Shown here piece by piece: positions 2,799-24,395 of a stretch of DNA of 32,000 bases. Under the pieces are notes generated by a model. That model made no database searches, had not been told where the DNA came from, and was given only the letters and a program-made list of their open reading frames with translations. Position 1 is the first letter of the stretch. Each line of letters opens with the position of its first letter. Origin of the DNA: Schaalia odontolytica (GTDB taxonomy: Bacteria; Actinomycetota; Actinomycetes; Actinomycetales; Actinomycetaceae); NCBI RefSeq assembly GCF_005696695.1, contig NZ_CP040006.1:1920001-1952000 (forward strand). The letters are read 5' to 3'. The translations under genes and the position numbers were made by a program.

Positions 2799-5700
2799 TT
2801 AGCCGATCCACGCGCCCGAGGGCGCGAAGTGGTACCAGGACCAGCCGATGAGTTCCCAACCGGTGGCCATGGAGCCGTTAGAGCGCAGGTAGAACCAGAC
2901 GGGTCCTTCCTGGTACCAGCCGGTGGTCATCGCGCCATTGGCACCCAGGTGGTACCAGGTACCACCGAGGAGCTGCCAGCCGGTGACCATGGAGCCGGAG
3001 GGCGACAGGTAGTACCAAGCGCCACCATCCTTGACCCAACCGGTGCGCATAACGCCGGAGGAGGACAGGTAGAACCAGGTCCCGTCGATCTGGGTCCAGC
3101 CGGTCGCCATCTGGCCGGTCGCGGGTGCGAGGTAGTACCAGGAGCCGCGGTCCATGATCCAGCCGTACTGCTGGGCGCCGCTGGAGCCGTGGTAGTACCA
3201 GTGTCCGCCGTCGTAGACCCAGCCCATCTTCAGGTAGCCGCTCGCGTCGAAGCGGTAGGTCTGCCCGTCGATGACGAGAGTCTCGTTGGCCGCGTAGGTG
3301 CCGTCAGAGTAGCTGTACCACCAGCCGAAGTAGCCGGACTTCCACTGACCGGTACGAGGCTGGGGCGCGGGATCCGGGGTCGGAGCCGGGGTGGGATCCA
3401 CGGTCGGCTCGGGAGCCGGGGTCGGGTCCACGGTGGGCTGCGGGTCCGGAGTGGGCTGCGGATCGGGCGTCGGCTGCGGGTCCGGAGTCGGAGCCGGGTT
3501 CTCGATCGTCACCCAGTACAGGAAGCGCGAGTCGCCGCCACCAACAGCGTGGAGCACGACCTGCGAGGTCTCGCCCTCGCCGAGTTCGACTTCCTGCGTC
3601 GTCTTGTCGGCCGGGTTGACGAGCATCAGGTGCGCGTTCGCAGCCGGCTTCTTGACGGTCAGGGTAATGTCCTGAGCGGTCTCGGCCAGCGAGCCGTTGT
3701 CGGTGCGCGGGTCGAGGAGGTAGGACGGGTAGCGGGTCTGGCCGGTCAGGGCGTTGACAACCATGAAGCCCTTGGGGACCGTCGTGGAGTCGCCGAAGAT
3801 CTCGGCGGACTTGGCGGTCTCCAGGCCCTTCAGCTGCTCGAAGTAGCCGACGACGACGTCGCCGGGCATTCCGTCGTTGACGGAGCCGACGTTGGTCACC
3901 GACATGTCAACCAGGCCGACGGCCTCGTTGGCGGCCTTGGCCTCGTCGCCGGAGGCGAAGTCACCGTACTTGTAGCCGCTCAGCGAGGGGGTCGCGCCGC
4001 GAGCCGCGTACTGGCCGGGCTTGTAGGCGACGAACGTGGAGTTCATGGCCTTCGTGTAGTTACCGATGTAGGTGACGTTGCCGAAGATGTTGGAGAACTC
4101 GTAGAACGAACGCGTGGGCGCGCCATCGTGGTCGATGATCGAGGAGCGGTCGTAGCCGTTGTACTCCATGCGGAACAGGCCGAACCACTTCTGGCCGGTG
4201 GCCAGGCCCAGGGAGGGCACGATCGACTTCTCGGAGGCCGAGACGTTGGCATCCCAGTTGTAGTCCAGGTACTGGCCGTACAGGATCGGGCTGGAGCCGT
4301 CACCGGTGAGGCCCTTGAGGCCGTATTCGCGCTGCTTCTTCCATGTGTTGGTGTTGAGCAGGTCCATGACGACTCGGCTCGGAGCCGGGCCGCCGTTGGC
4401 GCCCCAGTAGTACTTGTCCCAGCTGAGCAGGTCGGGCTTGGCGTTTTCGACGTAGTAGCTCAGGTTGGTGTCGCGGTACCAGGACGGGTCGTCCCAGGAG
4501 TTGGCGTGGACGACGGCGCCGGGGATGTTCTCCTTGGACCAGGAGAACCAGTTCTTGAAGCACTCGGACTCGCCACGGTTGAATCCACCTTCATCGCCGT
4601 ACTGGATGTCAACGAGCGTGGAGGCGTAGGGCTTCATGTACTCGTTCATGAAGTCGCGCGGCTCGCCCGCGTTGCACATGCTGTTCTTGCCGGTGGGGGC
4701 CTTGGCGAGGGCCCACGGCGCGCCCTTACCCAGGGACTCCATCATGGGGGTGTTGAACATGGGCAGGTCGTAGAACATCGGGAATGCGCCGCCCGTGAGG
4801 TCGCGCTCGTTGGCATCGAAGCCGCCGCGGCCGTAGCCCTCGGAGGGGACCCACGCGGGCATCATGACGCCGTACTGCAGCGCGAGGGCCTGGGCGCGGT
4901 TGACGCCCCACTTGCCGTCACCGGGGTTGAAGCCGGAGTAGCGCTCGTACATGGAATTGTCGACTGCCGGAGCGACGGGGGTCTTGCCGGCGGGCAGGCC
5001 CCACACCTCGACGTCGTTGAAGGTCACCGCGGTGGCGATGTTCTGCGGGGTCTGGGGCTCGGTCTCATCGTTCATCCAGATGCGGATGTTCTTGGCGAGG
5101 TGGTAGCTGTTGAAGTCCCAGTACCACAGGCCGCGCGCGTCGCGCGTGAGCGAGCCGTGGGTGACGATGGTCTTCCACGGCCCACCGTCGGCCTCCTGAA
5201 CCGCGATGGCGACGGAGTTACCGCCGTGCCAGCCCTGCACGCCGGCGGGCAGGGTCGGGGTGCCCCAGCCGTTGACGCGGTGCACGTAGCGGGCCTCGCC
5301 CAGGTGCAGCTCGATGCCGGTGACGCTGCTCGACCATTCATTCGCGCGAACGAGCGGATCGGAGGTCCACGTCGTTGTCGGGTCGAGGTCGGTCAAGGCC
5401 GCGTTGTCGGCCTCGGTGCCGCCGTTCGCCTGAGCGGTCGCGGGGATCATCACGTTGCCGCGGAAGTCGGTGTCAACCTTGGTGATGTTGACGACGTAGG
5501 TGGCTTCCTTGCCGTCCTTGCTGACCGTGGCTGTAATGACGTTCAGGCCGGTGGTGAGGTCGAGGTTGGAGACACGTCCGTCGGCGTCGGGGGTCGCGCC
5601 GTTGATGGTGACGGTGGCACCGTCGACAGCGCGGATGCGCGCGGAGACTGTCTTGGCGTGGTAGTAGCCGGTGGCCGTGTAGGTGTGGGTGCCGGGGGCA

Positions 5701-6515
5701 AAGTCAACGGGCTTGCCGGGCTCGCCGTAGGGCAGCTGGTCGATGACGAAGTCAACGACGAGGTCGGATGCGCCCGATCCCTGCTCGGGGGCCTCGGGGT
5801 GGGGCACGACGGGGCGGGCTGCTTCGTGGTTGCCACCGGTGTCCTCGTTGCCGTAGGAGGTGATGGCGTTACCGTCAGCGTCGCAGGGCAGGAGCTTGAT
5901 GTCGGACAGCGCCATGTCCTTCTTGCCGGGGGCGAGGGAGCGCAGGCCGGTCAGAGCGAAGACGCGCTTCGTGGTCGCCGGGAAGGTGACGTACTGTTCC
6001 TTGTTCCCGAACTGAAGGTCGCTTCCGTGCTTGACCTCGGTGCCGCCTTCCCACTTTCCCGCGGCGACGTTGGTCTTCCAGTCGGCGAAGGAGGCTTCGG
6101 CGGCCGGATTACCGGGGTCCTCATCGAAGGCAAACACGCGGTATTCGCCGGGGAACTGGTCGTTGCCCAGGGTCGAATCGTAGGTGGGGCGCGGGGTCAG
6201 GCCGAGGCCACAGACCTTGGTGCCGGGCGTGGGGTTCTCGACGGCGAGGGCGTGCGGGTATTCGTCGAGGCCACCCTTCCACTTGGTGGTCCAGAAGGTC
6301 TTGGTCGCGTCGGTACGGGTCGTGTCGTCGTCGACGAGGGCTGCGATCGTGCCGTTGGGTGCGCTTTCGCCGACCTTCTCTTCGGAGGTCGCCCACAGGA
6401 CGGTCGGGTGATAAGGGGTTTCGGTGGCGGCGACGGCCGCAGCGGGTGCGAGGCCAAGCATGGTGGCCGCAAGAATCGGGGCTCCGAGTGCACCGATGAT
6501 GGGTCTAGTCCCCAT
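2799..6515 (-). CDS. secreted, cell-wall-associated multidomain glycan-active protein (putative glycoside hydrolase, family unassigned), 1238 aa
   Basis: The ATG at 6515 is preceded by GAAGGAG (the track ORF extends to 6584). Signal peptide MGTRPIIGALGAPILAATMLGLAPAAAVAA. Two discoidin/F5-8 type C (CBM32-like) modules (FWTTKW..PHALAV, approx DNA 5880-6407, and a second at approx 4995-5459). One cadherin-like beta-sandwich (HTYTATGYYHAKTVSARIRAV..YVVNITK, approx 5475-5708). A central region of about 490 aa that I cannot assign (3501-4982). Then a P/T/D linker and about 8 cell-wall-binding repeats of about 20 aa (GWxxxGGxWYYLxxxGxMxTGW). No LPXTG motif. Confidence 0.9.
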   Translation of the reverse strand: MGTRPIIGALGAPILAATMLGLAPAAAVAATETPYHPTVLWATSEEKVGESAPNGTIAALVDDDTTRTDATKTFWTTKWKGGLDEYPHALAVENPTPGTKVCGLGLTPRPTYDSTLGNDQFPGEYRVFAFDEDPGNPAAEASFADWKTNVAAGKWEGGTEVKHGSDLQFGNKEQYVTFPATTKRVFALTGLRSLAPGKKDMALSDIKLLPCDADGNAITSYGNEDTGGNHEAARPVVPHPEAPEQGSGASDLVVDFVIDQLPYGEPGKPVDFAPGTHTYTATGYYHAKTVSARIRAVDGATVTINGATPDADGRVSNLDLTTGLNVITATVSKDGKEATYVVNITKVDTDFRGNVMIPATAQANGGTEADNAALTDLDPTTTWTSDPLVRANEWSSSVTGIELHLGEARYVHRVNGWGTPTLPAGVQGWHGGNSVAIAVQEADGGPWKTIVTHGSLTRDARGLWYWDFNSYHLAKNIRIWMNDETEPQTPQNIATAVTFNDVEVWGLPAGKTPVAPAVDNSMYERYSGFNPGDGKWGVNRAQALALQYGVMMPAWVPSEGYGRGGFDANERDLTGGAFPMFYDLPMFNTPMMESLGKGAPWALAKAPTGKNSMCNAGEPRDFMNEYMKPYASTLVDIQYGDEGGFNRGESECFKNWFSWSKENIPGAVVHANSWDDPSWYRDTNLSYYVENAKPDLLSWDKYYWGANGGPAPSRVVMDLLNTNTWKKQREYGLKGLTGDGSSPILYGQYLDYNWDANVSASEKSIVPSLGLATGQKWFGLFRMEYNGYDRSSIIDHDGAPTRSFYEFSNIFGNVTYIGNYTKAMNSTFVAYKPGQYAARGATPSLSGYKYGDFASGDEAKAANEAVGLVDMSVTNVGSVNDGMPGDVVVGYFEQLKGLETAKSAEIFGDSTTVPKGFMVVNALTGQTRYPSYLLDPRTDNGSLAETAQDITLTVKKPAANAHLMLVNPADKTTQEVELGEGETSQVVLHAVGGGDSRFLYWVTIENPAPTPDPQPTPDPQPTPDPQPTVDPTPAPEPTVDPTPAPTPDPAPQPRTGQWKSGYFGWWYSYSDGTYAANETLVIDGQTYRFDASGYLKMGWVYDGGHWYYHGSSGAQQYGWIMDRGSWYYLAPATGQMATGWTQIDGTWFYLSSSGVMRTGWVKDGGAWYYLSPSGSMVTGWQLLGGTWYHLGANGAMTTGWYQEGPVWFYLRSNGSMATGWELIGWSWYHFAPSGAWIG
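2802..3353 (-). repeat. coding tandem repeats, about 60-bp period, encoding choline-binding-type (CW_binding_1-like) cell-wall repeats
   Basis: The last 184 aa read GWVYDGGHWYYHGSSGAQQYGW / IMDRGSWYYLAPATGQMATGW / TQIDGTWFYLSSSGVMRTGW / VKDGGAWYYLSPSGSMVTGW / QLLGGTWYHLGANGAMTTGW / YQEGPVWFYLRSNGSMATGW / ELIGWSWYHFAPSGAW. The DNA shows recurring ccagccggtg..ccat..ggtagtaccagg units. Confidence 0.85.
3354..3500 (-). repeat. coding low-complexity tandem repeat (Pro/Thr/Asp linker)
   Basis: Encodes NPAPTPDPQPTPDPQPTPDPQPTVDPTPAPEPTVDPTPAPTPDPAPQPR: three 18-bp PTPDPQ units and two 30-bp PTVDPTPAPE-like units. Visible in the DNA as repeated ggctgcgggtccggagt. Confidence 0.85.
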
Positions 6516-6587
6516 GAGTTTAACTCCTTCGTCAGTATGGGGGTGGTGGCTGGGATCGGCCGTTAGACGGCCACAAATCCACAATAC

Positions 6588-6601
6588 CTAACACGTGTTA
6601 G
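6588..6601. promoter_or_regulatory. perfect 14-bp palindrome CTAACACGTGTTAG; candidate LacI-family operator O1 upstream of the secreted glycan-active gene
   Basis: Read directly from the sequence. It sits 73 nt upstream of the ATG at 6515 and next to a possible minus-strand -10, TATTGT (6581-6586). Two 12/14 copies lie in the other two control regions of the locus, at 10090 and 13078. Confidence 0.7.
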
Positions 6602-6636
6602 TTATTTGTGAAAAAACCTCCTTTTAGGTAGAGAAG

Positions 6637-6669
6637 ATCCCCGCGGGTGCGAGGGGCACCCGCGGGGAT
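6637..6669 (-). terminator. hairpin terminator after the ABC permease operon
   Basis: Perfect 14-bp stem ATCCCCGCGGGTGC / GCACCCGCGGGGAT with loop GAGGG, starting 6 nt after the permease stop (6675-6677). A U-run follows only about 20 nt downstream, so this is an I-shaped or partial terminator. Confidence 0.6.
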
Positions 6670-6674
6670 GAGGA

Positions 6675-7607
6675 TCAGAACTTCAGGCCGCCGTCTTCGA
6701 TGCCGCGGAAGAAGAACTTCTGGCTGAAGGCGAAGACCAGCACGACGGGGATCATCGCCACGACCGCGCCAGCCAGCACGAGCTGGTAGGTGACACCCTG
6801 AGGCGAGTTCTGGATGGCCGTCAGCGTCAGCATCAGCGTCTGCTTGTTCGGGTCGGGCAGCATGAGCAGCGGGAAGATAAAGTCGGACCAGGCGCCAATG
6901 AAGGACGTCAGGCCGACGACGGTGAGCGTGCCGCGCACCTGAGGCAGGAAGATCGACCAGAAGCGGCGCAGCTCGCCCGCACCGTCGATCAGGGCCGCGT
7001 CCTCGATCTCGTCGGGAATGCCCATGAACGCGGCGCGCATCATGAGGATCTGGAACGGCCCGATCATGGCCACCATCCACACGCCGGGGAGCGTGTTGTA
7101 CAGGTCCAGCTGCACCATCATCTTGAACAGCGAGAGCATGATCGACTCGAAGGGGAAGATCATGGCGGACAGGACCACGAAGTACATGATGTTGCGGCCG
7201 GTCCACCCGCGCCTCGACAGCATGTAGCCGCCGATGCACGACAGGATAACGTTCGAGGTGACCGTCAGGGTCGCGAGAATCGCGGAATTCTTAATCGACA
7301 GCAGGATGTTTGTGCGTTCGAAGAGCACGTAGAAGGAGTCCAGCGACCAGTGCTGGGGCAGCATGGTTGCACCCTGACCGAAGACGGATTCGCCGGGGGC
7401 CTTGAAGGCCGCCATGAGGGGCAGGACGAGGGGGCCGACCAGGATGAGGGCGACGACGACGAGGAGGGCGTAGCGGGCAATGAGGGCACCGCCGCGCATC
7501 TGACGCGATGCCGTGTTGCGCCCCTGGCGTTCGAGGCGGCGCTCCTTGCGCCACTGAGCGAAACGCTCTCCGAAGGAGGCGGGAGTGGTCGAGGTTGCGG
7601 TACTCAT
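6675..7607 (-). CDS. carbohydrate ABC transporter permease (MalG/CUT1-type)
   Basis: 310 aa with multiple TM segments and the binding-protein-dependent transport signature region IPDEIEDAALIDGAGELRRFWSIFLPQ (EAA loop). The ATG at 7607 overlaps the upstream stop (ATGA). Confidence 0.9.
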   Translation of the reverse strand: MSTATSTTPASFGERFAQWRKERRLERQGRNTASRQMRGGALIARYALLVVVALILVGPLVLPLMAAFKAPGESVFGQGATMLPQHWSLDSFYVLFERTNILLSIKNSAILATLTVTSNVILSCIGGYMLSRRGWTGRNIMYFVVLSAMIFPFESIMLSLFKMMVQLDLYNTLPGVWMVAMIGPFQILMMRAAFMGIPDEIEDAALIDGAGELRRFWSIFLPQVRGTLTVVGLTSFIGAWSDFIFPLLMLPDPNKQTLMLTLTAIQNSPQGVTYQLVLAGAVVAMIPVVLVFAFSQKFFFRGIEDGGLKF

Positions 7608-8515
7608 GAGTCTTCAGCCTTCCTCTGCAGGCTCTGCGAAGCGATGATGAAACCGAAGGTGATGAGGAACAGGCACACCGAGGCGGCGTCGCCCTGTCCC
7701 AGCGACCCGAAGGTCGGGTCCACGATTCGGTCTCGGATGTACATCGTGAGGGTCTTCGTGGGCGAGGCGGAGCCGCCCAGCAGGTAGACCTCGGTGAAGA
7801 TCTTCAGGCATCCGATCGTCGTCAGGGTGGCGACGAGGAACATCATGACCTTGACGCCCGGAACGGTGACGGTCAGGAAACGTCGGATCGGTCCGGCGCC
7901 GTCTAGTTCAGCGGCCTCGTACAGCGACTTGTCGACGTTCGCGAGGGCCGACAAGTACAGGATCATGTAGTAGGGCAAGCCCTGCCACAGGGTGATGAGC
8001 ATGGCACAGAAGAGGATCAACCACTGATTCGACAGGAATGGCACGGGGTCGAGTCCCCAAGATGCCAGCATGTTGTTGATGGGTCCGCGCTGGTCCAGGA
8101 GGTAGCGCCACGCGAGCGAAATGACGACCAGCGAGGAGATGGCTGGCAGGTAGTAGAGGGCGCGGAAAAAGCCGATGCCGGGCACGTGCGACTTGACGAG
8201 GAGGGCCAGCAGCAGGGGCAGGAGCACCATCAGCGGGACGACGCAGACCGCGTAGATGAGGGAGTTCGTCAGCGACTGCCAGAATTCGGGATCCGACAGC
8301 ACCGCGGCGAAGTTGTCGATACCAACGAAGCGACCGATGTGTCCCAATGGCTTCGTCTTCGTGAACGACACATAGACGGTCGTGATGAAGGGGTAGATGT
8401 AGAAGGAGATGACCGCGAGGACCGGGAGGGTCACCCACAGCCAGGGAACCCAGCCCGGGCGGAATCGGGCGGCGCCATTGAGGGAGCGCGTCTGCGCGCT
8501 CTTACGTGTCGGCAT
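7604..8515 (-). CDS. carbohydrate ABC transporter permease (MalF/CUT1-type)
   Basis: 303 aa with 6 predicted TM segments and the EAA-loop-like segment LYEAAELDGAGPIRRFLTVTVP. Translationally coupled to the downstream permease. Confidence 0.9.
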   Translation of the reverse strand: MPTRKSAQTRSLNGAARFRPGWVPWLWVTLPVLAVISFYIYPFITTVYVSFTKTKPLGHIGRFVGIDNFAAVLSDPEFWQSLTNSLIYAVCVVPLMVLLPLLLALLVKSHVPGIGFFRALYYLPAISSLVVISLAWRYLLDQRGPINNMLASWGLDPVPFLSNQWLILFCAMLITLWQGLPYYMILYLSALANVDKSLYEAAELDGAGPIRRFLTVTVPGVKVMMFLVATLTTIGCLKIFTEVYLLGGSASPTKTLTMYIRDRIVDPTFGSLGQGDAASVCLFLITFGFIIASQSLQRKAEDS

Positions 8516-8621: not shown

Positions 8622-10034
8622 TCAGTCTCCGAGAGCCTTGAGCTTCTCGTTCATCTGATCCTGAGCGGTCTTGAGAGCGGTCTTGGGATCGACCTCACCG
8701 CGGATGGCCTTGTTGACGTTCTCAATGAGGGCGTCCTTCACGGCGCCGGTCGCGTAGAAGACGTCGGTGTAGGCCTCGGCGTCCTTGGCGGCCTTAGCGG
8801 CCTCCTCGTAGGCGGCCTTGAAGACCGGGTCGTCGGCGATCTCCGGCGGGTTGGCAACGAGCTTGTCAAGGGCGTCGGTGGCGGCCGGGAAGATGATGGC
8901 GCCGCCGTCGTGCGTCCAGGCGTACTCGTTCTCAGCGTTGGTGATCCACTCGGCGAACTTCATGGCCAGGGGGGCGTTCTGCGTGGTGACGGAGACGCCG
9001 ATGTACTGGCCTTCGAAGACGGGCTTGATGCCGGGGTTGGTCGGGAACGGGCCGACGCCGGTGTTCTGGTAGACCGTCTCGTTGTTCTTCTTGACGGACT
9101 TGAGGAACGAGGCGTTGGGGGTACCGAAGGCGAGGTTGCCGTCGGTGTAGGCCTTGCCCGGGTCGGGCTCGCCGGTCAGGGAGTCCTTCGGGATGGCGCC
9201 GGAGGCGTAGAGCTCGGAGAGCTTGGTGACGTAGTTGATCGCGGCCTCGTTGTCGGCGAAGTCGAAGGCGGTCTTGTCGGCGTTGAGCAGGTTGACGCCC
9301 ATGCCGTGCAGCTGAGCGATCATGTACCACTCGGGCGAGCCGTAGATACCGTAGTCTCCCTGTCCGTCGGCGCCGACCTTGGCGGCATCCTCGAACAGCT
9401 CATCCATGGTCTTGGGCGGCATGTTCTCGTCGAGACCAGCGCGCTTGAAGACCTCCTTGTTGTAGGTGGTGATGTAGGGGCCGAAGTACCAGGGCAGAGC
9501 CGTGTGGTGGTCGTTGGCGCCCAGGGCGGTGGACTCCCAAATGGACTTCACGAACTTGTCGCCGATGCCGGGGGCCTTGACGTCGTAGTCCATGAGGAGG
9601 TTGGACTTGGACAGGGCGAGGATGGTGGAAGAGGGAACGTTGATGACGTCCGCCATCTTGCAGTTCGAGGCCTGAGCGGTCACGGTCTGGTCGAACTCGG
9701 CGCCGCCGCCCTGGTCGGTCCAGTTGATCTTGACGCCGGGGTTGGCGTCCTCGAATTCCTTGATCTTGGCCTTGAAGAAGTCGCCGAAGTCGTTCTGCAG
9801 ACCCTGGGTCTGGAACGTGATCTCGCCTTCAACCTTCGAGGTGTCGATCTTCGAGTCGTCAAGGTTGCCCGCGGGGATGTCGCACGCGACATCGGGCTCG
9901 GGGATGGAACCGGCAGCGGTCGAACCGCCGCTCGAGCTGTCGGAGCTGGAGCCACCAGGGTTGCAGGCGGCCAGGCCGAGGGTGCTGAACATGGCGAGGG
10001 CGACAACGCCTGCGGCCATCTTCTTCTTCAACAT
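8622..10034 (-). CDS. extracellular solute-binding lipoprotein of a sugar ABC importer (family 1 SBP)
   Basis: 470 aa. The ATG at 10034 is preceded by GGAGG. Lipoprotein signal MLKKKMAAGVVALAMFSTLGLAAC with an LAAC lipobox, followed by a Ser/Gly-rich tether. The overall composition is typical of CUT1 sugar-binding proteins. Confidence 0.9.
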   Translation of the reverse strand: MLKKKMAAGVVALAMFSTLGLAACNPGGSSSDSSSGGSTAAGSIPEPDVACDIPAGNLDDSKIDTSKVEGEITFQTQGLQNDFGDFFKAKIKEFEDANPGVKINWTDQGGGAEFDQTVTAQASNCKMADVINVPSSTILALSKSNLLMDYDVKAPGIGDKFVKSIWESTALGANDHHTALPWYFGPYITTYNKEVFKRAGLDENMPPKTMDELFEDAAKVGADGQGDYGIYGSPEWYMIAQLHGMGVNLLNADKTAFDFADNEAAINYVTKLSELYASGAIPKDSLTGEPDPGKAYTDGNLAFGTPNASFLKSVKKNNETVYQNTGVGPFPTNPGIKPVFEGQYIGVSVTTQNAPLAMKFAEWITNAENEYAWTHDGGAIIFPAATDALDKLVANPPEIADDPVFKAAYEEAAKAAKDAEAYTDVFYATGAVKDALIENVNKAIRGEVDPKTALKTAQDQMNEKLKALGD

Positions 10035-10189: not shown

Positions 10190-10214
10190 GGTTGGGGCTT
10201 AATCACCCCCAACC
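10190..10214 (-). terminator. short hairpin overlapping the beta-galactosidase stop codon
   Basis: GGTTGGGG (10190-10197) pairs with CCCCAACC (10207-10214). On the minus-strand RNA it is followed by the U-rich UGUUAUGUUG. It may separate lacZ from the ABC transcript. Confidence 0.4.
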
Positions 10215-13024
10215 TGGGCAATTACGAATGTCAGGTCCGTATCGCGCATACAACCGGCGAACTCGGGCCGAGAGTCAGGCCCGCACGAACGTGTGCCGAT
10301 GCCGTCCTGGAATGCGTCGAGCCACAGGAACGTACGCTCACTGTCAGGCAGGTCCTCCCAGTGCGAGGCCTCGGCCAATTCACGCTCGCTCCACGGCGAG
10401 GCGCTCCAGCCCAGGGACGAGGTCGGCACGACGAGGAGGTCGCCCGCCTCGCCATGCAGACGGAGGGCTTCGAGGTCGAGGCGCTGCCCGCCTTCCTGGG
10501 GGCGCACGCTGACATCCCAGAGCTCTCGCACGGGGGCGCGTCCATATCCGCGAGCGCCACTCACGCGCATGTCGGAGTATCCGATAAGGGTGTCGCCGAG
10601 CCACGAGGCTTCCCACTGCGATCCGGGCATCTCGATGCGCACGCCGAGGCGCGGGACACGCTCGGGCCAGGCCCCGTAGGGCACGACGCGAGCAGACACA
10701 GACAGGGCCGGGGTCTCCCCCAGCAGCACGGGACGATATTCCCAGGTGAGGGTGACGCCAAACTGCGCGACAGGCGGGGCCCAGCGCTCGACGACGCGCT
10801 GGCAGGGGCCATCCTCCTCGACGGATACGAGGCGTCGGCGCAGCAGGTGCAGGCGAGCCTGCTCCCAGCGGGCTGCGTGCGAAGTTCCGTGCTCGCCGCG
10901 CCCGACCCCGAGCGGGCCGAGGTCGGCCTCGTCAATCCCCCAGTAGTCGACGGGGCCGCGCCCGCGATCGTTGTCGGTGGGGGCCCTAAAGACGCTGAGG
11001 TCGACGCTCACGGGCATGGTACCGATCCGCGCGAGGCGCCCGCGCGCATCGAGCGCGTAGGGGGCTGCCACATCATCGTCCGAGCGGACGACCGCGACGG
11101 GGGCGCCGAGGAGCGCGCGCAGTCGGGCCTCATCCGGGCCATGTCCGCGCGAGGACTCGACAGCCTTCGCGAGGGCCGGAGCGTCCGGGGCCATCGCCTG
11201 AACCCACGACCAGGTGCCGGCGTAGGGGCGCGACAGGGCATCGATCAGGCCATCGCACACGAAGCTGCCGTCGTGGACCTCCTCGCCGAAGTCGCCACCG
11301 TAGGACAGGGCTCGTCGCCCGTCGGGCAGGGTGCGCCACAGGGCATGGTCGCGCCATTCCCACACGAAGCCGCCAGCATGGCGGGGGTGGCCCATCTGCG
11401 CGGCGTAGGCGGCGGCGTTTCCGGGACCTGTTCCCATCGCGTGCAGGTATTCGCACATGATGTAGGGGGCGCGGCGGATGCGCTCGCGCGCGGCGTCGTC
11501 AACCCGCGCGGCGACGTGCGTGGGGACGGCAACCTCGGCGTGGGGATCGCTTTCGTCGAGGACGGCGGCGACTTCCTCGAGGGTCGGGTACATGCGCGAG
11601 TAGATGTCCGTGTATTCGAGGCCGTGGTCGCCCTCGTAGTGAACGATCGCCCGGGAACCCGTGCGCTCGTGGATCCAGCGCGCGCAGGCGACCAGGTTCG
11701 CGCCGGTGCCGGACTCGTTGCCAAGGCTCCAGCTCATGATCGAGGGATGGTTCTTGTCGCGCTCGAAGGCGCGGACCGTGCGATCCATGTAGGCATCGGT
11801 CCAGCGCGGGTCGTCGGAGGGGTTATCGATCCACTCCCCCTCGCCCTCGAACCCATGCGTTTCAATGTCGCCTTCGAGCATGACCCACAGGCCGATCTCG
11901 TCGACCAGGTCGAGCAGGCGGGGGTGGGGCGGGTAGTGGGAGGTGCGAATCGCGTTGATTCCCATGGACTTCATGAGGGTGAGGTCTTCGCGCGCCCAGG
12001 CCTCGTCAAACACGCGTCCCTCGGCGGCGCGCACCTCGTGACGGTTAACCCCGTTGAGGGTCAGGGACTCGCCGTTGGCCATGAGAACGCCGTCCTCGAT
12101 GGACACGCGACGGAAGCCGATGCGCAGGCACCGCTCCCCCGCGTCGAGGCCTTCCGAGCCCTGGACGCTGACGCGCGCTTCGTAGAGGGCTGGGTCCTGC
12201 GCGCTCCACGGGCGCACGCTGCCCACTTCGATGCGGCCGCTGCGGTAGCGGCCGTCCTCGCCGCGTTCGAGCGAGCAGGCGAACGACCAGAGGCCGTCGA
12301 TGCTGAGATGCCCGGACAGATGAGCCTCCTGGGCGCCGAGCACCCGGGCTTCGATGGTCACATAACCCACCCCGGCCTCGTAGTCGGTGTCGACCCACAG
12401 GTCTTCGATAGCTCCGGGAGCCAGGCGGCGCAGGCTCACCGAGCGGAAGATGCCGGGCAGCCACCACTGATCCTGGTCCTCGAGGTAGGAGCCGGAGCTG
12501 AACTGGTGCACGCGCACGGTGATCGTATTGACGCCGGGGTGCACGGCCTCGGTCACGTCGAACTCGTGGGCGAGGCGCGAACCGCGGGCCATGCCGATCC
12601 ACGTGCCGTTCACCCACACGGTGGCCTGACTTTCAACGCCGTCGAAACGCAGGCGAATGTGGCTGCCCTGCCAGTCGGCGGGGAGTTCGAAGGTGCGGCG
12701 GTAGTCGCCGACAGGGTTGTCGTCGGGCGGGAACGGCGGGTCGACCGGGAAGGGGAAGTCGACGTTGGTGTAGGCGGGGTGGCCCCAGGCGCCCTCGCCG
12801 CGCAGGACCCAGTGGCTGGGCACGTCGATCTCGGACGCGTCGCCGGCGGGAGCGGGTTCATCCCAGGGCTGCTCGACGTTGACGAAGGGGGCGGGGTCGG
12901 TGCTGTGATAGGCGAAGCTCCACATGCCATCGAGGCTGAGAACCCCACAGTCGTCAGCGAGGTGCGCGCGCGGAGGCACAAGCGCGCCCGCGCCGGGAGC
13001 ATAGGAAGGTAGTATCGATATCAC
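10199..13024 (-). CDS. lacZ: beta-galactosidase, glycoside hydrolase family 2 (LacZ-type), 941 aa
   Basis: Collinear with E. coli LacZ: LSLDGMWSFAY, YTNVDFPFPVDPPFPPDDNPVGDY, SGSYLEDQDQWWLPGIFR, the acid/base motif WSLGNESG and the nucleophile motif CEYLHAMG. There is no signal peptide, so it is cytoplasmic. A GTG at 13024 with GAAAGG upstream is preferred. The 134 codons the track adds up to 13426 run into the divergent regulator gene. Confidence 0.92.
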   Translation of the reverse strand: MISILPSYAPGAGALVPPRAHLADDCGVLSLDGMWSFAYHSTDPAPFVNVEQPWDEPAPAGDASEIDVPSHWVLRGEGAWGHPAYTNVDFPFPVDPPFPPDDNPVGDYRRTFELPADWQGSHIRLRFDGVESQATVWVNGTWIGMARGSRLAHEFDVTEAVHPGVNTITVRVHQFSSGSYLEDQDQWWLPGIFRSVSLRRLAPGAIEDLWVDTDYEAGVGYVTIEARVLGAQEAHLSGHLSIDGLWSFACSLERGEDGRYRSGRIEVGSVRPWSAQDPALYEARVSVQGSEGLDAGERCLRIGFRRVSIEDGVLMANGESLTLNGVNRHEVRAAEGRVFDEAWAREDLTLMKSMGINAIRTSHYPPHPRLLDLVDEIGLWVMLEGDIETHGFEGEGEWIDNPSDDPRWTDAYMDRTVRAFERDKNHPSIMSWSLGNESGTGANLVACARWIHERTGSRAIVHYEGDHGLEYTDIYSRMYPTLEEVAAVLDESDPHAEVAVPTHVAARVDDAARERIRRAPYIMCEYLHAMGTGPGNAAAYAAQMGHPRHAGGFVWEWRDHALWRTLPDGRRALSYGGDFGEEVHDGSFVCDGLIDALSRPYAGTWSWVQAMAPDAPALAKAVESSRGHGPDEARLRALLGAPVAVVRSDDDVAAPYALDARGRLARIGTMPVSVDLSVFRAPTDNDRGRGPVDYWGIDEADLGPLGVGRGEHGTSHAARWEQARLHLLRRRLVSVEEDGPCQRVVERWAPPVAQFGVTLTWEYRPVLLGETPALSVSARVVPYGAWPERVPRLGVRIEMPGSQWEASWLGDTLIGYSDMRVSGARGYGRAPVRELWDVSVRPQEGGQRLDLEALRLHGEAGDLLVVPTSSLGWSASPWSERELAEASHWEDLPDSERTFLWLDAFQDGIGTRSCGPDSRPEFAGCMRDTDLTFVIAQVGGD

Positions 13025-13077
13025 GTCTCTGTGCCTTTCGGATGTCGTCGTCGAAACTCCGATCGTCAGAGATAAGA

Positions 13078-13091
13078 CTAACACGTTATAG
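13078..13091. promoter_or_regulatory. candidate LacI-family operator O3 (CTAACACGTTATAG, 12/14) in the divergent lacZ/regulator control region
   Basis: Lies 54 nt from the lacZ GTG and 45 nt from the regulator ATG. It overlaps candidate -10 boxes on both strands: TATAGT on + at 13087-13092 and TATAAC on -. Confidence 0.6.
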
Positions 13092-13135
13092 TTGTTGTGT
13101 TTCAACGAAACGCAACCGAGGATTGGGAGCCTTGC

Positions 13136-14218
13136 ATGGAGCGCGCAACCCGGGCTGACGTCGCCCGCGCAGCAGGCGTCGCACCGTCGACCGTCTCGCT
13201 CGTCCTCAACGGACGAGGCCGGGACGTGAAGATCGCGCCCGCCACCATCGATCGCGTCAAGCAGGCCGCACGCGAACTCAACTACATCCCCAACGCAGCC
13301 GCCCGGTCGCTGCGCCGCGGCAAGTCCCACCTCATCGCCCTCCTTATGGCCGAGCTGCCGGACGACCCCTTCGTGCCCGTCGTCCACACGGTCCTCACGA
13401 CCGCAATGATCGACATTCAGCGCCACGGCTACCTACTGCTCCCCCTCTTCCAGTCCGGCGACGGAGCCTCGGACGCCGAGGTCATCCGCGGGGTCCTGGG
13501 CGACACGCAGCTGGCCGGCATCATCCGCGAGACCACGTCGGCCGAGGCCTTCACCTCGCGCCTGCTCGCCAATCTCGGCATCCCTGTCGTCGCCATGTCG
13601 ATGATCGAGGCCAACCCCACCGGCTCGGAATCCTCCCTCATTCGCATCGACGAGGGTGCCGGCGTGCGCGACGTTCTCTCAGACTGCGCGCTCGTGGATC
13701 CGGCGACCGGCACAGGTCAGGGGCGTGCCGTCTTCTTGGCGGGACCAAACACGAATCACGCGCGCCAGAACCCGATCGCGAGCGCGTTCGGCACGAAGTT
13801 CACCCTCTACTCGCTGCCCGACTGGGAGCCCACCACGGCCTACCAGGCCGCACTGCGCCTCCTCGACGAAGACCCGTCAATCTCGCTCATCGCCCTGGCC
13901 GACGACTCGCAGGCCCCCGGCGTCTTCCAGGCTGCCGCAGACCTGGATCTGTCAGTACCCCACGACCTGTCGGTCCTCGGCTTCGGCAATCAAGACCACC
14001 GCAGCGCCTCCGCTCTCGGCCTCACGACGGTCGAGTGGCCCCTCAAGGAAATGACCGAGGCTGCCGTCTCCTCGATCATCAACGTGATCGAGGGCCGCTC
14101 CCCCATGACCGATGTTCACCCCAGCGCATCCATCGACGAGGAGGCCCCGGACGGCACCCCGATCGCGACGATCCCGACGCACCCGGTATGGCGCTCATCG
14201 GTGGCCAGGCGCGCATAG
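13136..14218 (+). CDS. LacI-family transcriptional regulator
   Basis: N-terminal HTH TRADVARAAGVAPSTVSLVLNG, then YIPNAAARSLRRGKS, then a periplasmic-binding-protein-like sugar-sensor fold. The ATG at 13136 is preceded by GGGAG with a 6-nt spacer. The GTG at 13097 in the track would abut the operator. Confidence 0.9.
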   Translation: MERATRADVARAAGVAPSTVSLVLNGRGRDVKIAPATIDRVKQAARELNYIPNAAARSLRRGKSHLIALLMAELPDDPFVPVVHTVLTTAMIDIQRHGYLLLPLFQSGDGASDAEVIRGVLGDTQLAGIIRETTSAEAFTSRLLANLGIPVVAMSMIEANPTGSESSLIRIDEGAGVRDVLSDCALVDPATGTGQGRAVFLAGPNTNHARQNPIASAFGTKFTLYSLPDWEPTTAYQAALRLLDEDPSISLIALADDSQAPGVFQAAADLDLSVPHDLSVLGFGNQDHRSASALGLTTVEWPLKEMTEAAVSSIINVIEGRSPMTDVHPSASIDEEAPDGTPIATIPTHPVWRSSVARRA

Positions 14219-19226: not shown

Positions 19227-20144
19227 TCAGCCGTCGTCGCCGCAGCACGTGTCGCGCCTGGCCCGGGCCTGCTCGGCCCGCGCGCCCCATCGCGAGGGAT
19301 CGGGATACTCCACGCCCTCGAGGGTGAGCCCGTGTGCGGGGGCGATCGGCGCGGCCTTGGAGCGGGACCGGGCCCTCAGGATCTGCGCCGGGTAGTCAAC
19401 GTCGCGCGCGCCCGAGCCCACCAGGAGCAGCGCCCCCACCAGGGAGCGGACCATCGAGTGGCAGAACGCATCCGCCTCGACTCGGAAGACGAGGGTCCCC
19501 TCGGCGTCACGCTCGGCGCGCAGGGTACGCAGGGTTCGGATCGTCGTAGCCCCCTCGCGCGGGCGGCAGAACCCGAGGAAGTCGTGTTCCCCGAGGAGGG
19601 CGGCCCCGGCCTCGTTCATGGCAGCCTCGTCGAGGGGATCTTCGACCCAGAGGCGATCCCAGCGCCCGAGGGGCTCGGGGCGGTCCGACACACGGTAGGC
19701 GTACGAGCGCCCAAGGGCGGAGAAGCGCGCGTCGAAAGTGGGGGCGACAACGGCGGCCGAGTAGATGCGCACGTCGCAGGTCCCGCGCGCGGCGGCCAGG
19801 TCGCGGCCACGAGCGCGCTCGCCGTAGCGACCGGAGAGGATCTTGTTGAGTCGGCGGACGATCGCCGAGGCCACGGCCTCGTCGTCGGACTCCCCTCCCC
19901 TGGGCGACAGTCGCGTCCAGGCGGCCTCGGAAATGTCCGCGTGACAGACCTGGTGACGCGCATGAACCCCCGCATCGGTACGGCCGGCCACCGTCGTGAC
20001 GATCTCTTCGCGCGAGGCCATGGCGAGGGCCGCTTCAACCTCGCCCTGGACGGTGCGCAGTCCGGGCTGGGCGGCCCAACCCCGAAAGTCGGTGCCGTCG
20101 TAGCCCAGGTCGAGGCGCAGGCGCCGCGCGCTCACAGCTCCCAC
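19227..20144 (-). CDS. truA: tRNA pseudouridine(38-40) synthase
   Basis: LRLDLGYDGTDFRGWAAQPG and GRTDAGVHA (catalytic Asp) motifs. The start is the GTG at 20144, or the GTG at 20135, which forms a GTGA overlap with the upstream stop. Confidence 0.9.
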   Translation of the reverse strand: MGAVSARRLRLDLGYDGTDFRGWAAQPGLRTVQGEVEAALAMASREEIVTTVAGRTDAGVHARHQVCHADISEAAWTRLSPRGGESDDEAVASAIVRRLNKILSGRYGERARGRDLAAARGTCDVRIYSAAVVAPTFDARFSALGRSYAYRVSDRPEPLGRWDRLWVEDPLDEAAMNEAGAALLGEHDFLGFCRPREGATTIRTLRTLRAERDAEGTLVFRVEADAFCHSMVRSLVGALLLVGSGARDVDYPAQILRARSRSKAAPIAPAHGLTLEGVEYPDPSRWGARAEQARARRDTCCGDDG

Positions 20145-20881
20145 GCCCGAACGCCGCCGATAATGCCCGCGTCGTTGGGCACGACGATCACGTCATCGCC
20201 CATGAGGCGCAGGTTCGAGGCCGTGATGCGCTTGGAGTTGCCGCCACCTAAGTAGAGGCGATCCCACATGTACATGGGGCGCAGTCCATCCACGACGCGG
20301 CGAACACGACGCGACCAGTGAACGTCGCCCAGACGCAGGCGCTCATGCTCGCCGATGTAGTCGTCGTATGTCAGGCCCCAGCGAACAGGTCCCTGAGAGA
20401 CCTCGACGTGGGGCGCCAGCTGGCCGCCGTCGAACACCGCGTTACCGAGGCCCGTTCCCAGGGTGATGATCATTTCGAGGCCGCGGCCCGTGATCGCGCC
20501 GGCGCCAGCGACTTCGGCATCGTTCAAGACCTTGGTGGGCAGGCCGAGGGCCTCCTCAATCGCACGGCCCATGTCGAAGTGGTCCCAGCGCTCGACCAGC
20601 TCGGGCAGCACGCGCGAGCGCGGCCCATCGCGGGTGATGTAGTGAGGGGTCGCGATGACAACACCGTGGCGGATCATTCCCGGCATACCCATCGTCACTC
20701 GCGTCGCAGTGGGAAGCTCACGCGCGAGGCCGATAACGGTTTCCACGAGAAGCTCAGGAGGCAGCGGGTAAGGAGTGGGCACTCTGCGAGGCGGGGCCAT
20801 CATCGTGCCGCGCTCATCCACGACGGAGCCCTTAATGCCACCGCCGCCGCAGTCAATCGCCAACGTCATCTCACGAGTCAT
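20132..20881 (-). CDS. ROK-family sugar kinase, polyphosphate glucokinase (PpgK)-like
   Basis: 249 aa. LAIDCGGGGIKGSVVD (phosphate-1 loop), VLNDAEVAGAG, ITLGTGLGNAV and YLGGGNSKR are collinear with the actinobacterial PpgK architecture, and the ROK zinc-Cys motif is absent. The 3' end overlaps truA. Confidence 0.75.
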   Translation of the reverse strand: MTREMTLAIDCGGGGIKGSVVDERGTMMAPPRRVPTPYPLPPELLVETVIGLARELPTATRVTMGMPGMIRHGVVIATPHYITRDGPRSRVLPELVERWDHFDMGRAIEEALGLPTKVLNDAEVAGAGAITGRGLEMIITLGTGLGNAVFDGGQLAPHVEVSQGPVRWGLTYDDYIGEHERLRLGDVHWSRRVRRVVDGLRPMYMWDRLYLGGGNSKRITASNLRLMGDDVIVVPNDAGIIGGVRAWEL

Positions 20882-20906
20882 GGCTTCAGGCTACCGGATA
20901 CGGCAA

Positions 20907-20938
20907 GGGCCGGACACTCCTTGCGGAATGTCCGGCCC
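20907..20938 (-). terminator. hairpin after rplQ (terminator/attenuator)
   Basis: 10-bp stem GGGCCGGACA / TGTCCGGCCC with a 12-nt loop, 29 nt downstream of the rplQ stop. Confidence 0.5.
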
Positions 20939-20966
20939 AATGCTCGAGTTGATCAGTGACGAACGG

Positions 20967-21536
20967 TCACTTCTCGTCGGCGACCTGCTCGGCGGCGTCT
21001 GCAGCCTTGCCGGCCTCCTCGGCGATTTCCTCGGCCTCGTTGGCCTTGGCGAGATCGCCTTCCTCGCGAGCCTCTTCGGCGCGCTCGGCGGCAGCCTCGG
21101 CGGCCTTCTCGGCCTCTTCGGCGACGGCCTTGGCGGCGGTCTTCTCGGCAGCCTTCACGACGGCCTTCTTCTCGACCTTCTCCATGACGAGCTCAATGCG
21201 CATCAGGGGAGCGTTGTCGCCCTTGCGGTTGCCGACGCGGATGAGGCGGGTGTAGCCGCCAGCGCGCTCGGAATCCATCGCGGGAACGAGCTCCTCGAAG
21301 AGGATCGCGACGATGCCCTTGTTGGGGATCTTCTTCATGACCGTGCGGCGGGCGTGCTGGTCGCCACGCTTGGCCTTGGTGATGAGCTTCTCGACGTAGG
21401 GGCGCAGGGCCTTAGCCTTGGCCTCGGTCGTCGTGATCGCACGGTGTTCGATGAGCTGAGCTGCCAGGTTCGACAGGATCAGCTTCTGGTGTGCCGGGCT
21501 ACCGCCCAGACGAGCACCCTTCTTGGGGGTGGGCAT
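20967..21536 (-). CDS. rplQ: 50S ribosomal protein L17 with a long Ala/Glu/Lys-rich C-terminal tail
   Basis: [49 protein letters not shown] core, followed by a low-complexity tail of about 70 aa. Confidence 0.95.
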
Positions 21537-21579
21537 GAGTTTCTCCTACGGATTCAATGCGTCCATCGGACGCACGGGG

Positions 21580-22575
21580 TCAGATGGACTGGTCGTCCGA
21601 AAAGATCGCGGCGGACTCCGAGTCGCCGAAGCTCGGCATGACCGAGTCCTTCAGCGTCATACCAAGGGCCGCCAGGGACTCCTTGATCTCTTCGATCGAC
21701 TTGGTGCCGAAGTTGCGGATGTCGAGCAGGTCGGCCTCCGAGTGAGCAACCAGCTCGCCGACGGTCAGGATGCCGCGGCGACGCAGCGCGTTGTAGGAAC
21801 GCGACTGCAGGTTCAGGTTCTCGATCGGGAGAGCCAGATCGGCTGCGAGGGTGGCGTCGGTGGTGGACGGACCCACCTCGATGCCTTCCGCTTCCTCGTT
21901 CAGTTCACGCATGAGGCCGAACAGCTCCACCAGCGTCTTGCCGGCCGAGGCCAGGGCATCGCGCGGGGTGATCGCCGGCTTGGTCTCCACGTCGATGACG
22001 AGGCGATCAAAGTCGGTGCGCTGCTCAACACGCGTCGCCTCGACCTTGTAGGTCACCTTGACGACGGGCGAGTAGATCGAATCAATCGGAATGCGAGAGA
22101 TCTCGGCCTGCGGATCCTTGTTCTGAGCGGCCGACACGTAGCCACGGCCACGCTCGACGGTCAGCTCGATCTCCAGCTTGCCCTTCTCGTTGAGGGTGGC
22201 AAGGTGCAGATCGGGGTTGTGGATCTCCACGCCGGCGGGAGGCGTGATGTCGCCGGCGAAAACCTCGCCGGGGCCAGCCTTCCGCAGGTACATGACGACA
22301 GGCTCGTCGTTCTCGCTGGACAGGACGATCTGCTTGATGTTCAGGATGATCTCAGCGACATCTTCCTTCACACCTTCGATCGTGCGGAACTCGTGGGGGA
22401 CGCCATCAATACGGATGGACGTCACCGCTGCACCCGGGATCGAGGACAGGAGGGTACGACGCAGGGAGTTACCCAGCGTGTAGCCGAACCCGGGCTCGAG
22501 GGGCTCCAGGGTGAAACGGGAGCGCAGGTCGCTGACCTTTTCTTCGGTCAGGATGGGTCGCTCTGCAATGAGCAC
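21580..22575 (-). CDS. rpoA: DNA-directed RNA polymerase subunit alpha
   Basis: [40 protein letters not shown]-terminal domain, and a C-terminal domain with LSSRSYNxL-type [26 protein letters not shown] start at 22575 with GAAAGGAA upstream. Confidence 0.96.
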
Positions 22576-22699
22576 GTCTATTCCTTTCTGGCCGGTGCCC
22601 GCTATATGACACCGGATATGGGAACCTGCTGAAGCAGGCTAAGGGAGTAAGAACCCGAAGGTTCAGACGTGGGGAGGGCAATGCCCTCCCGTCCACAAG

Positions 22700-23110
22700 T
22701 CAGCCGCGGCGGCGCTTCGGCGGGCGGGTGCCGTTGAAGGCCTGAGGCGTGACGTCCTGGATCGAACCGATCTCGAGGCCGGCGGCCTGGAGGGAACGGA
22801 TCGCGGTCTCACGGCCGGAGCCGGGACCCTTCACGAAAACGTCAACCTTCTTCATGCCGTGCTCCTGGGCGCGACGAGCCGCAGCCTCGGCCGCGAGCTG
22901 CGCGGCGAAGGGGGTGGACTTACGCGAACCCTTGAAGCCAACCTGGCCGGAGGACGCCCAGGCGACAACCGCGCCCGTGGGGTCCGTGAGGGAAACGATG
23001 GTGTTGTTGAACGTCGACTTGATGTAGGCGTGGCCGTTGGTGACGTTCTTCGAAATCTTGCGACGCGGCTTGCGGGCACCGCCCGAGCGCGAGGTCTTTG
23101 CTGCTGCCAT
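22700..23110 (-). CDS. rpsK: 30S ribosomal protein S11
   Basis: [44 protein letters not shown] motifs. Confidence 0.96.
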
Positions 23111-23171
23111 TTCTGGTTCAGTTCCTTCTTGTCGCGGAAAGCTACCCCGAGGGGATGCGCTCTCCTAGGCC

Positions 23172-23546
23172 TTACTTGGCCTTCTTCTTGCCTGCAACGG
23201 TGCGCTTGGGGCCCTTGCGGGTACGCGCGTTGGTCTTGGTGCGCTGACCGTGGACCGGCAGGCCACGACGGTGGCGAAGGCCCTGGTACGAACCGATTTC
23301 GATCTTGCGACGAATGTCGGCCTGAACCTCACGGCGGAGGTCACCCTCAACCTTGAAGTTTGCCTCAATGTAGTCACGAAGCTTGACGAGTTCCTCTTCC
23401 GTCGCGTCCTTCACGCGAGTGTCCGGGCTGACGCCGGTGGCGGCGAGGGTCTCTGCCGCGCGGGTGCGGCCGACTCCGTAGATGTATGTGAGCGCGATCT
23501 CGAGCCGCTTCTCGCGGGGGAGGTCGACGCCGGCAATACGTGCCAT
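23172..23546 (-). CDS. rpsM: 30S ribosomal protein S13
   Basis: [26 protein letters not shown] from the ATG at 23546. The 8 upstream codons in the track ORF are unlikely to be translated. Confidence 0.95.
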
Positions 23547-23694
23547 GGTGATGTTGCTCCAGTTGTTCATCGGAGGTCGTCATCGCTCAGTCCGGGCGAG
23601 CAGCCCGGCCTCGGCCTCCGAACCGAGGGTCACCCACGAGTGGGTGCTTAGAGTGATGCTGTGGGGCTTGGTGCCCCGCGGGTCGCAGCGGGTC

Positions 23695-23808
23695 TCAGCC
23701 CTGGCGCTGCTTGTGCCTGGGGTTGTCGCAGATGACCATGACGTTGCCGTGGCGACGAATCACCTTGCACTTGTCACAGATCTTCTTGACACTCGGCTTG
23801 ACCTTCAT
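23695..23808 (-). CDS. rpmJ: 50S ribosomal protein L36
   Basis: Not in the ORF track because it is too short. The minus strand reads [43 protein letters not shown], with GGAGG upstream. Confidence 0.93.
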
Positions 23809-23848
23809 GGTTGTTACCTCCACTGCCCGTCGGGCAGTTTGTGTCGGG

Positions 23849-24347: not shown

Positions 24348-24380
24348 CGGGCCCGGCACCTGAATGAGGTACCGGGCCCG
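24348..24380 (-). terminator. hairpin after map (terminator/attenuator)
   Basis: 14-bp stem CGGGCCCGGCACCT / AGGTACCGGGCCCG with loop GAATG. Its one mismatch is C/A on + but a G-U wobble in the minus-strand RNA. It lies 16 nt downstream of the map stop. Confidence 0.55.
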
Positions 24381-24395
24381 CAGCCACACGTCGTG

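Follow-up and report, generated by a model that had tools for sequence, protein, structure and literature searches.

A candidate GH111-type glycosidase domain in a cell-surface protein of Schaalia odontolytica

To our knowledge, glycoside hydrolase (GH) family 111 rests on one characterised enzyme and has no Pfam model, solved structure, catalytic residue assignment or physiological pathway; its founding enzyme is the keratan sulfate hydrolase of Bacillus circulans KsT202. Keratanase II has a strict requirement for 6-sulfo-N-acetylglucosamine (6-sulfo-GlcNAc). GH111 enzymes have been described as keratan sulfate hydrolases, i.e., endo-beta-N-acetylglucosaminidases (keratanase II), with a triosephosphate isomerase (TIM) barrel as AI model and no crystal structure as of 2021 (PMC8602953). 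They are enriched in the genus Actinomyces and in saliva (PMC8702856), and dockerin-bearing GH111 proteins occur in mucin-degrading gut Clostridia. Keratanase II is reported to accept sugar oxazolines as transition-state analogues (Ohmae 2007), which is expected of an Asp-Glu neighbouring-group enzyme. Here, we report the analysis of the central core (amino acids [aa] 512-1005) of a 1238-aa cell-surface protein of Schaalia odontolytica, encoded on the minus strand of a 32,000-nucleotide stretch (NZ_CP040006.1, positions 1,920,001 to 1,952,000, all of it called the window below). The core is a widespread domain with a predicted TIM-barrel fold, and we propose, with confidence a little above even, that it is the catalytic module of a wall-anchored, retaining, keratanase-II-type endo-beta-N-acetylglucosaminidase, most probably of GH111.

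The core domain, its predicted fold and its conservation

The core and its parts occupy the following window positions.
3501-4982, minus strand: core, aa 512-1005, barrel plus beta-sandwich.
4050-4910, minus strand: (beta/alpha)8 barrel of the core, ~aa 536-822, presumed catalytic domain (AlphaFold2, Foldseek and conservation).
4590-4595, minus strand: D641-E642 codons, proposed catalytic pair (D641, GAT at 4593-4595; E642, GAA at 4590-4592).
3501-4049, minus strand: C-terminal beta-sandwich of the core, ~aa 823-1005 (AlphaFold2 secondary structure and conservation).

The original prediction, made from the sequence alone, held that the core matches no recognised family, and searches of Pfam, NCBIfam and PDB sequences, the last also with a profile, bore this out. 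Alone, the core matched no Pfam family even at E<=10. A whole-protein Pfam scan named only Cadherin-like and choline-binding/cell-wall repeats, a spurious PARP match aside, and whole-protein NCBIfam matches were confined to the repeats and the Pro/Thr (PT) linker. Against PDB sequences, nothing was found with the core itself (best E=2) and nothing significant with a 29-sequence profile (best E=0.05); the profile's best match, to polygalacturonases over the beta-sandwich, was rejected as noise. No Pfam match covered the core in 18 further members (10 + 8) scanned whole, and 29 aligned core domains gave nothing meaningful at E<=10 (one member matched DUF6443, E=0.095). Regular expressions for the GH18 motif DxxDxDxE, H.GGDE and the Asp-box found none of them in the core, as had been claimed, and the six motifs that the prediction quoted were all located by translation check (residues 553, 634, 670, 696, 749 and 777).

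A word-indexed search recovered 48 relatives; apart from a Brachybacterium protein with 40% identity, nearly all were close sequences from oral metagenomes or Actinomyces. An exhaustive hidden Markov model (HMM) search, seeded with a small curated alignment (A2), found 423 representative clusters that match the core, 104 at E<=1e-30. Homologue searches from the alignment and from a Paenibacillus member returned generic names and reached no further than single-sequence search. Proteins with the core domain range from single-domain forms of 480-510 aa, some of them secreted with twin-arginine (TAT) or Sec signals, to multi-domain forms of up to 2300 aa. Their accessory modules, of kinds common in CAZymes, comprise F5/8 type C, LamG, cadherin-like, Big_2, FIVAR, dockerin, SLH, autotransporter and type IX secretion system (T9SS) tail domains; F5/8 type C domains are found in orthologues and paralogues of the surface protein, and the SLH-bearing, very large members (~2000-2300 aa) belong to Paenibacillus and Bacillus. 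Source names are generic ("cell surface protein," "hypothetical," "discoidin/cadherin-like/LamG/Ig-like domain-containing").

AlphaFold2 gave a poor model with a 6-sequence alignment (predicted local distance difference test [pLDDT], 53.5). This alignment was superseded by one of 29 sequences drawn from the exhaustive HMM search (A3), which gave a pLDDT of 89.6 and a predicted template modeling (pTM) score of 0.91. With 423 matching clusters and a fold predicted at this confidence, the core is a real domain and not a chance or low-complexity region. The model comprises eight strand-helix units (barrel strands at core residues 42-45, 67-70, 90-95, 123-128, 157-163, 185-189, 234-240 and 266-270) followed by a C-terminal beta-sandwich (core residues 313-494). 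Foldseek against the PDB returned 187 matches at E<=1e-3. Almost all of the 50 matches listed were TIM-barrel glycoside hydrolases (GH66, GH35, GH30, GH164, GH39-like, GH5, GH27 and BT_1012), with a GH66 enzyme at the top, and the best of those listed reached a template modeling (TM) score of only ~0.4 at 7-10% identity. In this model the fold class is clear, and no solved family is matched at the family level. The structure prediction and Foldseek search that had been recommended for the core thus yielded a glycosidase-like TIM barrel.

Conservation was scored over 70 aligned domain sequences with identity down to ~22% (protein numbering). D700, D695 and G747 are 100% conserved; D641, E642, N672, Y749, F781 and R729 are 99% conserved; and W555, W601, Y702 and W777 are 96-97% conserved. 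The Asp-Glu pair singled out speculatively in the original prediction (the YGDE motif, at the codons named there) is D641/E642, each residue retained in 69/70 members in the motif [FY]-G-D-E. The pair (core residues 130-131) lies two to three residues past strand 4 (123-128), where the C-terminal end of that strand thus bears the family's best-conserved acidic feature; conservation and topology support a putative catalytic role. N672 lies on strand 5, D700 and Y702 at the end of strand 6, and Y749 on strand 7.

In clan GH-A enzymes, strand 4 carries Asn-Glu and strand 7 the Glu nucleophile, whereas neighbouring-group N-acetylhexosaminidases such as GH20 and GH123 end strand 4 with an adjacent Asp-Glu and lack a second carboxylate at the nucleophile position. 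In the core, strand 4 ends in G-D-E and strand 7 carries G747-Q748-Y749, where position 748 is Gln in 59/70 members and acidic in 0/70; E784, after strand 8, is retained in only 47/70. A classical clan GH-A mechanism is unlikely, since neither strand 7 nor strand 8 offers a conserved acidic residue, and clan GH-A was rejected as the core's family, with no Pfam match to it either. The missing strand 7 carboxylate also disfavours the earlier guess of a galactan-type depolymerase. The pattern of residues on the modelled strands fits a substrate-assisted, hexosaminidase-type mechanism.

Near-invariant polar residues were also seen in the C-terminal beta-sandwich (G885-D886, N921, Q948 and G993-G994; window ~3534-3861). 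Such residues are unusual in a purely structural appendage, and these may add a loop to the active site or plus subsites.

An in-frame deletion of ~50 aa (aa ~703-752, window ~4248-4411) was observed in the oral-metagenome versions P0015, P0023 and P0024, whose 90% clusters hold 6, 9 and 30 sequences. It is flanked by two near-identical 14-nucleotide (nt) repeats, CTGGGGCGCCAACG and CTGGGATGCCAACG, and takes out helix 6 and strand 7, and with them the invariant residues R729, G747 and Y749; these versions are presumably natural null alleles. Among other members, P0090 and P0094 (HHW01105.1 and HHW01106.1; 1328 and 2279 aa), from a Clostridiaceae metagenome-assembled genome (MAG), are paralogues that may form a tandem pair, as their accessions are consecutive and both lie on one 189,677-bp contig. 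P0110 (WP_284645162.1, Paenibacillus silviterrae, 1682 aa) bears the NCBI name "ABC transporter substrate-binding protein," which suggests that a glycosidase-like domain is fused with a solute-binding domain.

Proposed function and competing explanations

The protein had been cast as the extracellular partner of a GH2/ATP-binding cassette (ABC)/LacI system, and synteny across genera supports that role. In a genome scan, the window locus grouped with Schaalia odontolytica, Pauljensenia and oral "Actinomyces" loci (93-99% identity); orthologues were found in S. meyeri (89%), S. georgiae (77%), P. hongkongensis (77%), Actinobaculum massiliense (61%), a Gardnerella MAG (59%) and Brachybacterium (40%). 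The order GH2, solute-binding protein (SBP), permease, permease, surface protein is kept in Schaalia, Pauljensenia and Actinobaculum. A GH29 alpha-L-fucosidase gene adjoins the surface-protein gene in P. hongkongensis (L023:6875-8200), Actinobaculum massiliense (L025:5984-7354) and the Gardnerella MAG (L027:12619-14046), and is also adjacent in two metagenomic orthologues with 43-46% identity (L030 and L032) and beside a single-domain actinobacterial member that is only ~25% identical (L036). The L032 cluster adds fucI, fucK, fucA and fucU; a sulfatase gene is adjacent in L030 and in L039, the latter also with ABC importers; and genes for a GH85 endo-beta-N-acetylglucosaminidase (ENGase) and a DUF4838 (GH163/GH185-type) protein lie near members in L035 and L038, respectively. 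The gene neighbourhoods of the Kribbella, L037 and L040 members gave no further clue. Since every GH29-linked cluster holds a beta-galactosidase and no hexosaminidase was seen in these clusters, the imported product would carry galactose (Gal), with or without fucose (Fuc), at its non-reducing end, and the surface enzyme would then cut one sugar beyond Gal, most simply after the GlcNAc of N-acetyllactosamine (LacNAc)-type chains.

We propose that the enzyme would act in this way on host glycans, with salivary mucin O-glycans, N-glycan antennae and keratan-sulfate-like poly-LacNAc as candidate substrates, and would release Gal-beta-1,4-GlcNAc units, possibly with fucose or sulfate. D641 would orient and polarise the 2-acetamido group, which would serve as nucleophile via an oxazolinium intermediate; E642 would be the general acid/base; and Y749, N672, D700 and Y702 would line the -1 subsite. 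The lipoprotein SBP would bind the released oligosaccharide for import by the ABC permeases, and the cytoplasmic GH2 beta-galactosidase would dismantle it, joined in most related genera by the GH29 alpha-fucosidase, with LacI in control of the system. Membership in GH111 as such is likely, as judged from published descriptions of that family, and the core probably belongs to a CAZy family that already exists, albeit almost without characterisation, and not to an undefined one.

Several observations weigh against this assignment. The words keratan and GH111 are absent from the recovered source names of members, including look-ups of 30 proteins. The active-site residues were placed from strand positions only, and the strand 6 residue D700, at 100% conservation, could be catalytic in a different, strand-4/strand-6 mechanism. 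Overall, the architecture resembles clan GH-A and GH-D enzymes by Foldseek, and the substrate-assisted families GH18, GH20, GH84, GH85 and GH123 are absent among the 50 matches listed. The window lacks both GH29 and sulfatase genes, which makes plain LacNAc chains a possible preference of the Schaalia enzyme. The families GH163/GH185 and GH85, whose genes lie near some members, were rejected for the core itself. GH163 and GH185, which correspond to DUF4838, are distant from GH20, and GH185 is a new 6-sulfo-GlcNAcase family that is substrate assisted on sulfated or complex glycans (PMC10570127); the core has no DUF4838 (PF16126) match, and hhalign against a DUF4838 protein gave a probability of 0.2%. 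For GH85, a family with an N-x-E motif, there was no Glyco_hydro_85 match, and hhalign against the L035 GH85 protein gave a probability of 0.3%.

The core might instead found a glycoside hydrolase family outside all CAZy families, in the same role of feeding the GH2/GH29/ABC system, a possibility that we regard as real but doubtful. The empty Pfam, NCBIfam and PDB sequence and profile searches, the uniformly generic source names and the TM scores of only ~0.4 for the best structural matches would all suit it; the same negatives are, however, expected for GH111, because that family has no Pfam model known to us and had no crystal structure as of 2021. The literature also puts GH111 in Actinomyces and saliva, with a TIM barrel and with dockerin forms in gut Clostridia, like the core's family. 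The suggestion of a still undefined family is accordingly weakened, as GH111 fits in fold, taxa, architecture and genomic context. Were the core outside CAZy, it would represent a new widespread family (>400 clusters at 50% identity) spanning Actinomycetota, Bacillota, Bacteroidota-type T9SS proteins and autotransporter-bearing Gram-negatives, made up of TIM-barrel glycosidases in which an Asp-Glu pair replaces the Asn-Glu/Glu machinery of clan GH-A and which harvest LacNAc units bearing fucose or sulfate from the glycans of hosts and plants.

It is unlikely that the core is an endo-beta-galactosidase of the GH98/keratanase I type, with E642 as general acid and D700 as base, or some similar pair, freeing blood-group or Lewis fragments that carry fucose and end in Gal on the reducing side. 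The tight linkage with GH29 and fucose catabolism genes parallels the pneumococcal fucose-utilisation operon, GH98 likewise combines a TIM barrel with a beta-sandwich, and strands 4 and 6 hold the invariant E642 and D700, respectively, at their C-terminal ends. Yet the beta-galactosidase found in all GH29-linked clusters, with no hexosaminidase seen, argues for Gal at the non-reducing terminus of the product, and an adjacent invariant Asp-Glu is more typical of neighbouring-group enzymes. GH98 was also rejected on profile grounds, with no Glyco_hydro_98M or Glyco_hydro_98C match in the core or the 29 members.

Very unlikely is an alpha-retaining enzyme of the clan GH-D/GH66/GH101 type, with D641 as nucleophile and D700 as acid/base, for example an O-glycanase resembling endo-alpha-N-acetylgalactosaminidase that frees mucin core-1-based glycans. 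Such families have their catalytic residues on strands 4 and 6, where D641 and D700 are invariant, and a GH66 enzyme heads the Foldseek matches, with a GH27 alpha-galactosidase also among those listed; the TM scores are nevertheless low and no better than for clan GH-A. There was no Pfam match to GH27, GH31, GH36, GH66 or GH101, the presence of sulfatase, DUF4838 and GH85 genes near members speaks for GlcNAc-containing chains, and LacZ-type GH2 enzymes are poor on Gal-beta-1,3-N-acetylgalactosamine (GalNAc). A non-catalytic glycan-binding or adhesin domain on a pseudo-enzyme barrel, as the several lectin-like modules and wall anchor of the protein might suggest, is hardly credible, given catalytic-face polar residues that are near-invariant over 70 sequences to ~22% identity, single-domain secreted members, and operon-like linkage to importers and exo-glycosidases.

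Layout of the surface-protein gene and its locus

Outside the core, the surface-protein gene is laid out as follows.
2799-6515, minus strand: whole gene, 1238-aa cell-surface protein; ATG at 6515, stop codon 2799-2801 (open reading frame [ORF] list and translation check).
6423-6515, minus strand: predicted signal peptide, ~aa 1-31, MGTRPIIGALGAPILAATMLGLAPAAAVAAT (read by eye in the translation).
5871-6413, minus strand: N-terminal beta-sandwich module, ~aa 35-215, weakly discoidin-like (phmmer against PDB).
5478-5705, minus strand: Cadherin-like beta-sandwich domain, aa 271-346 (Pfam PF12733, E=3.7e-9).
5001-5423, minus strand: second beta-rich module, ~aa 365-505, directly N-terminal of the core (aligns with the region upstream of the P0018 core).
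3342-3500, minus strand: Pro/Thr-rich linker, ~aa 1006-1058 (read from the translation).
2802-3341, minus strand: choline-binding-type cell-wall repeats, ~aa 1059-1238, wall anchor (Pfam PF01473, E=6.6e-31; PF19127, E=5.1e-28).

Pfam confirmed the Cadherin-like domain and the repeats among the flanking modules named in the original prediction and did not detect its two discoidin/CBM32-like modules. In the first of these regions, residues 39-110 weakly match the PDB "putative chitobiase" chains 2kd7/3ggl (phmmer, E ~2e-4). The ~aa 365-505 module has no Pfam match, and F5/8 type C domains occupy the equivalent position in paralogues. The linker yields spurious low-complexity PARP/TonB-type matches in Pfam and NCBIfam, and in a sequence search the wall repeats match CbpE, CbpJ and toxin A repeats in the PDB. 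A scan for promoters and terminators near the gene found no signal above chance. The whole gene is overlapped on the opposite strand by a 1245-aa ORF (window 2829-6566, plus strand); the ORF's translation is rich in Gly, Arg and Val, and it is a high-GC artefact, not a gene.

The neighbouring genes, as predicted and as identified by Pfam, are as follows.
6675-8515, minus strand: two ABC sugar permease genes, 7604-8515 and 6675-7607 (BPD_transp_1).
8622-10034, minus strand: lipoprotein SBP of the ABC importer (SBP_bac_1, E=1.9e-32; lipobox LAAC in the translation).
10199-13426, minus strand: LacZ-type GH2 beta-galactosidase (Glyco_hydro_2_N, Glyco_hydro_2_C and Bgal_small_N).
13097-14218, plus strand: divergent LacI-family regulator (LacI and Peripla_BP_3).

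The gap between the permease and surface-protein genes is only ~160 bp (6516-6674) and holds no GH29 gene. The longest GH2 ORF starts with the GTG at 13426 and shares ~330 bp (13097-13426) with the divergent LacI ORF; because orthologues align only from ~residue 99, the true GH2 start probably lies near 13130 or further downstream. On the far side of the window (19227-27175) are the housekeeping genes truA, a ROK-family kinase gene, rpoA and secY, which have no relation to the glycan locus. Two assemblies, L001 (NZ_JVKM01000042.1, "Xylanimonas cellulosilytica 352_XCEL") and L008 (NZ_JVOJ01000032.1, "Sanguibacter keddieii 250_SKED"), carry the whole locus at 96-99% protein identity and are probably mislabelled Schaalia assemblies.

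Significance and comparison with known systems

Whichever label holds, the family of the core is almost unstudied, and hundreds of its proteins are named after accessory modules only, because Pfam and NCBI annotation is blind to the core domain. Supplied here are a high-confidence predicted fold, a candidate catalytic pair (D641/E642) with candidate subsite residues, an alignment that reaches single-domain members suited to crystallography, and an operon logic that predicts the product (surface enzyme, ABC importer, GH2 and GH29 in the cytoplasm and, in some relatives, a sulfatase and fucose catabolism). For oral biology, the system points to a foraging route by which Schaalia and Actinomyces, which abound in saliva and on the tongue, may obtain LacNAc and Lewis epitopes of salivary mucins. 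Keratanase II is already used in glycoanalytics and enzyme therapy, and to these fields the family offers many candidate enzymes that may be smaller or independent of sulfate.

Compared with GH111, the core shares a modelled TIM barrel, and as of 2021 neither had a reported crystal structure, which is consistent but not specific. The reported occurrence of GH111 in Actinomyces and saliva is matched by core orthologues in Schaalia, Pauljensenia and oral "Actinomyces," which is supportive but not defining; dockerin-bearing forms, reported for GH111 in gut Clostridia, exist in the core's family too. The invariant Asp-Glu pair of the core would be compatible with an oxazoline-type mechanism, and the neighbourhoods of its relatives hold the LacNAc-processing genes GH2, GH29, sulfatase and DUF4838. 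The window locus differs from keratanase II in that, with no sulfatase gene present, a strict 6-sulfo-GlcNAc requirement is not expected.

GH20 lacto-N-biosidases and beta-hexosaminidases, and GH123, are likewise TIM barrels in which an adjacent Asp-Glu follows strand 4 and a later strand bears a conserved Tyr, and the Bifidobacterium GH20 logic, in which a Gal-N-acetylhexosamine (HexNAc) disaccharide is released outside the cell and then imported by an ABC transporter, is shared. The core differs in motif ([FY]-G-D-E, Y-G-D-E in the window protein, rather than H-x-G-G-D-E). There was no Glyco_hydro_20 match in the core and no Glyco_hydro_20 or DUF4091 match in the 29 members (E<=10), and neither a GH20 nor a GH123 structure is among the 50 Foldseek matches listed; GH20 was rejected as the family of the core.

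The best overall structural resemblance is to clan GH-A enzymes with a C-terminal beta-sandwich (GH35, GH30, GH164, GH39 and GH5). The conserved strand 4 Glu of the core sits at the acid/base position of that clan, whereas the core has Asp-Glu in place of Asn-Glu and no conserved strand 7 Glu. At the level of the whole system, the loci of the relatives resemble the Streptococcus pneumoniae fucose-utilisation operon in combining a surface endo-glycosidase bearing lectin modules, an importer, cytoplasmic GH29 and exo-glycosidases, and fucI/fucK/fucA/fucU, but the catalytic module differs and the companion enzyme is GH2 rather than GH95 or GH36.

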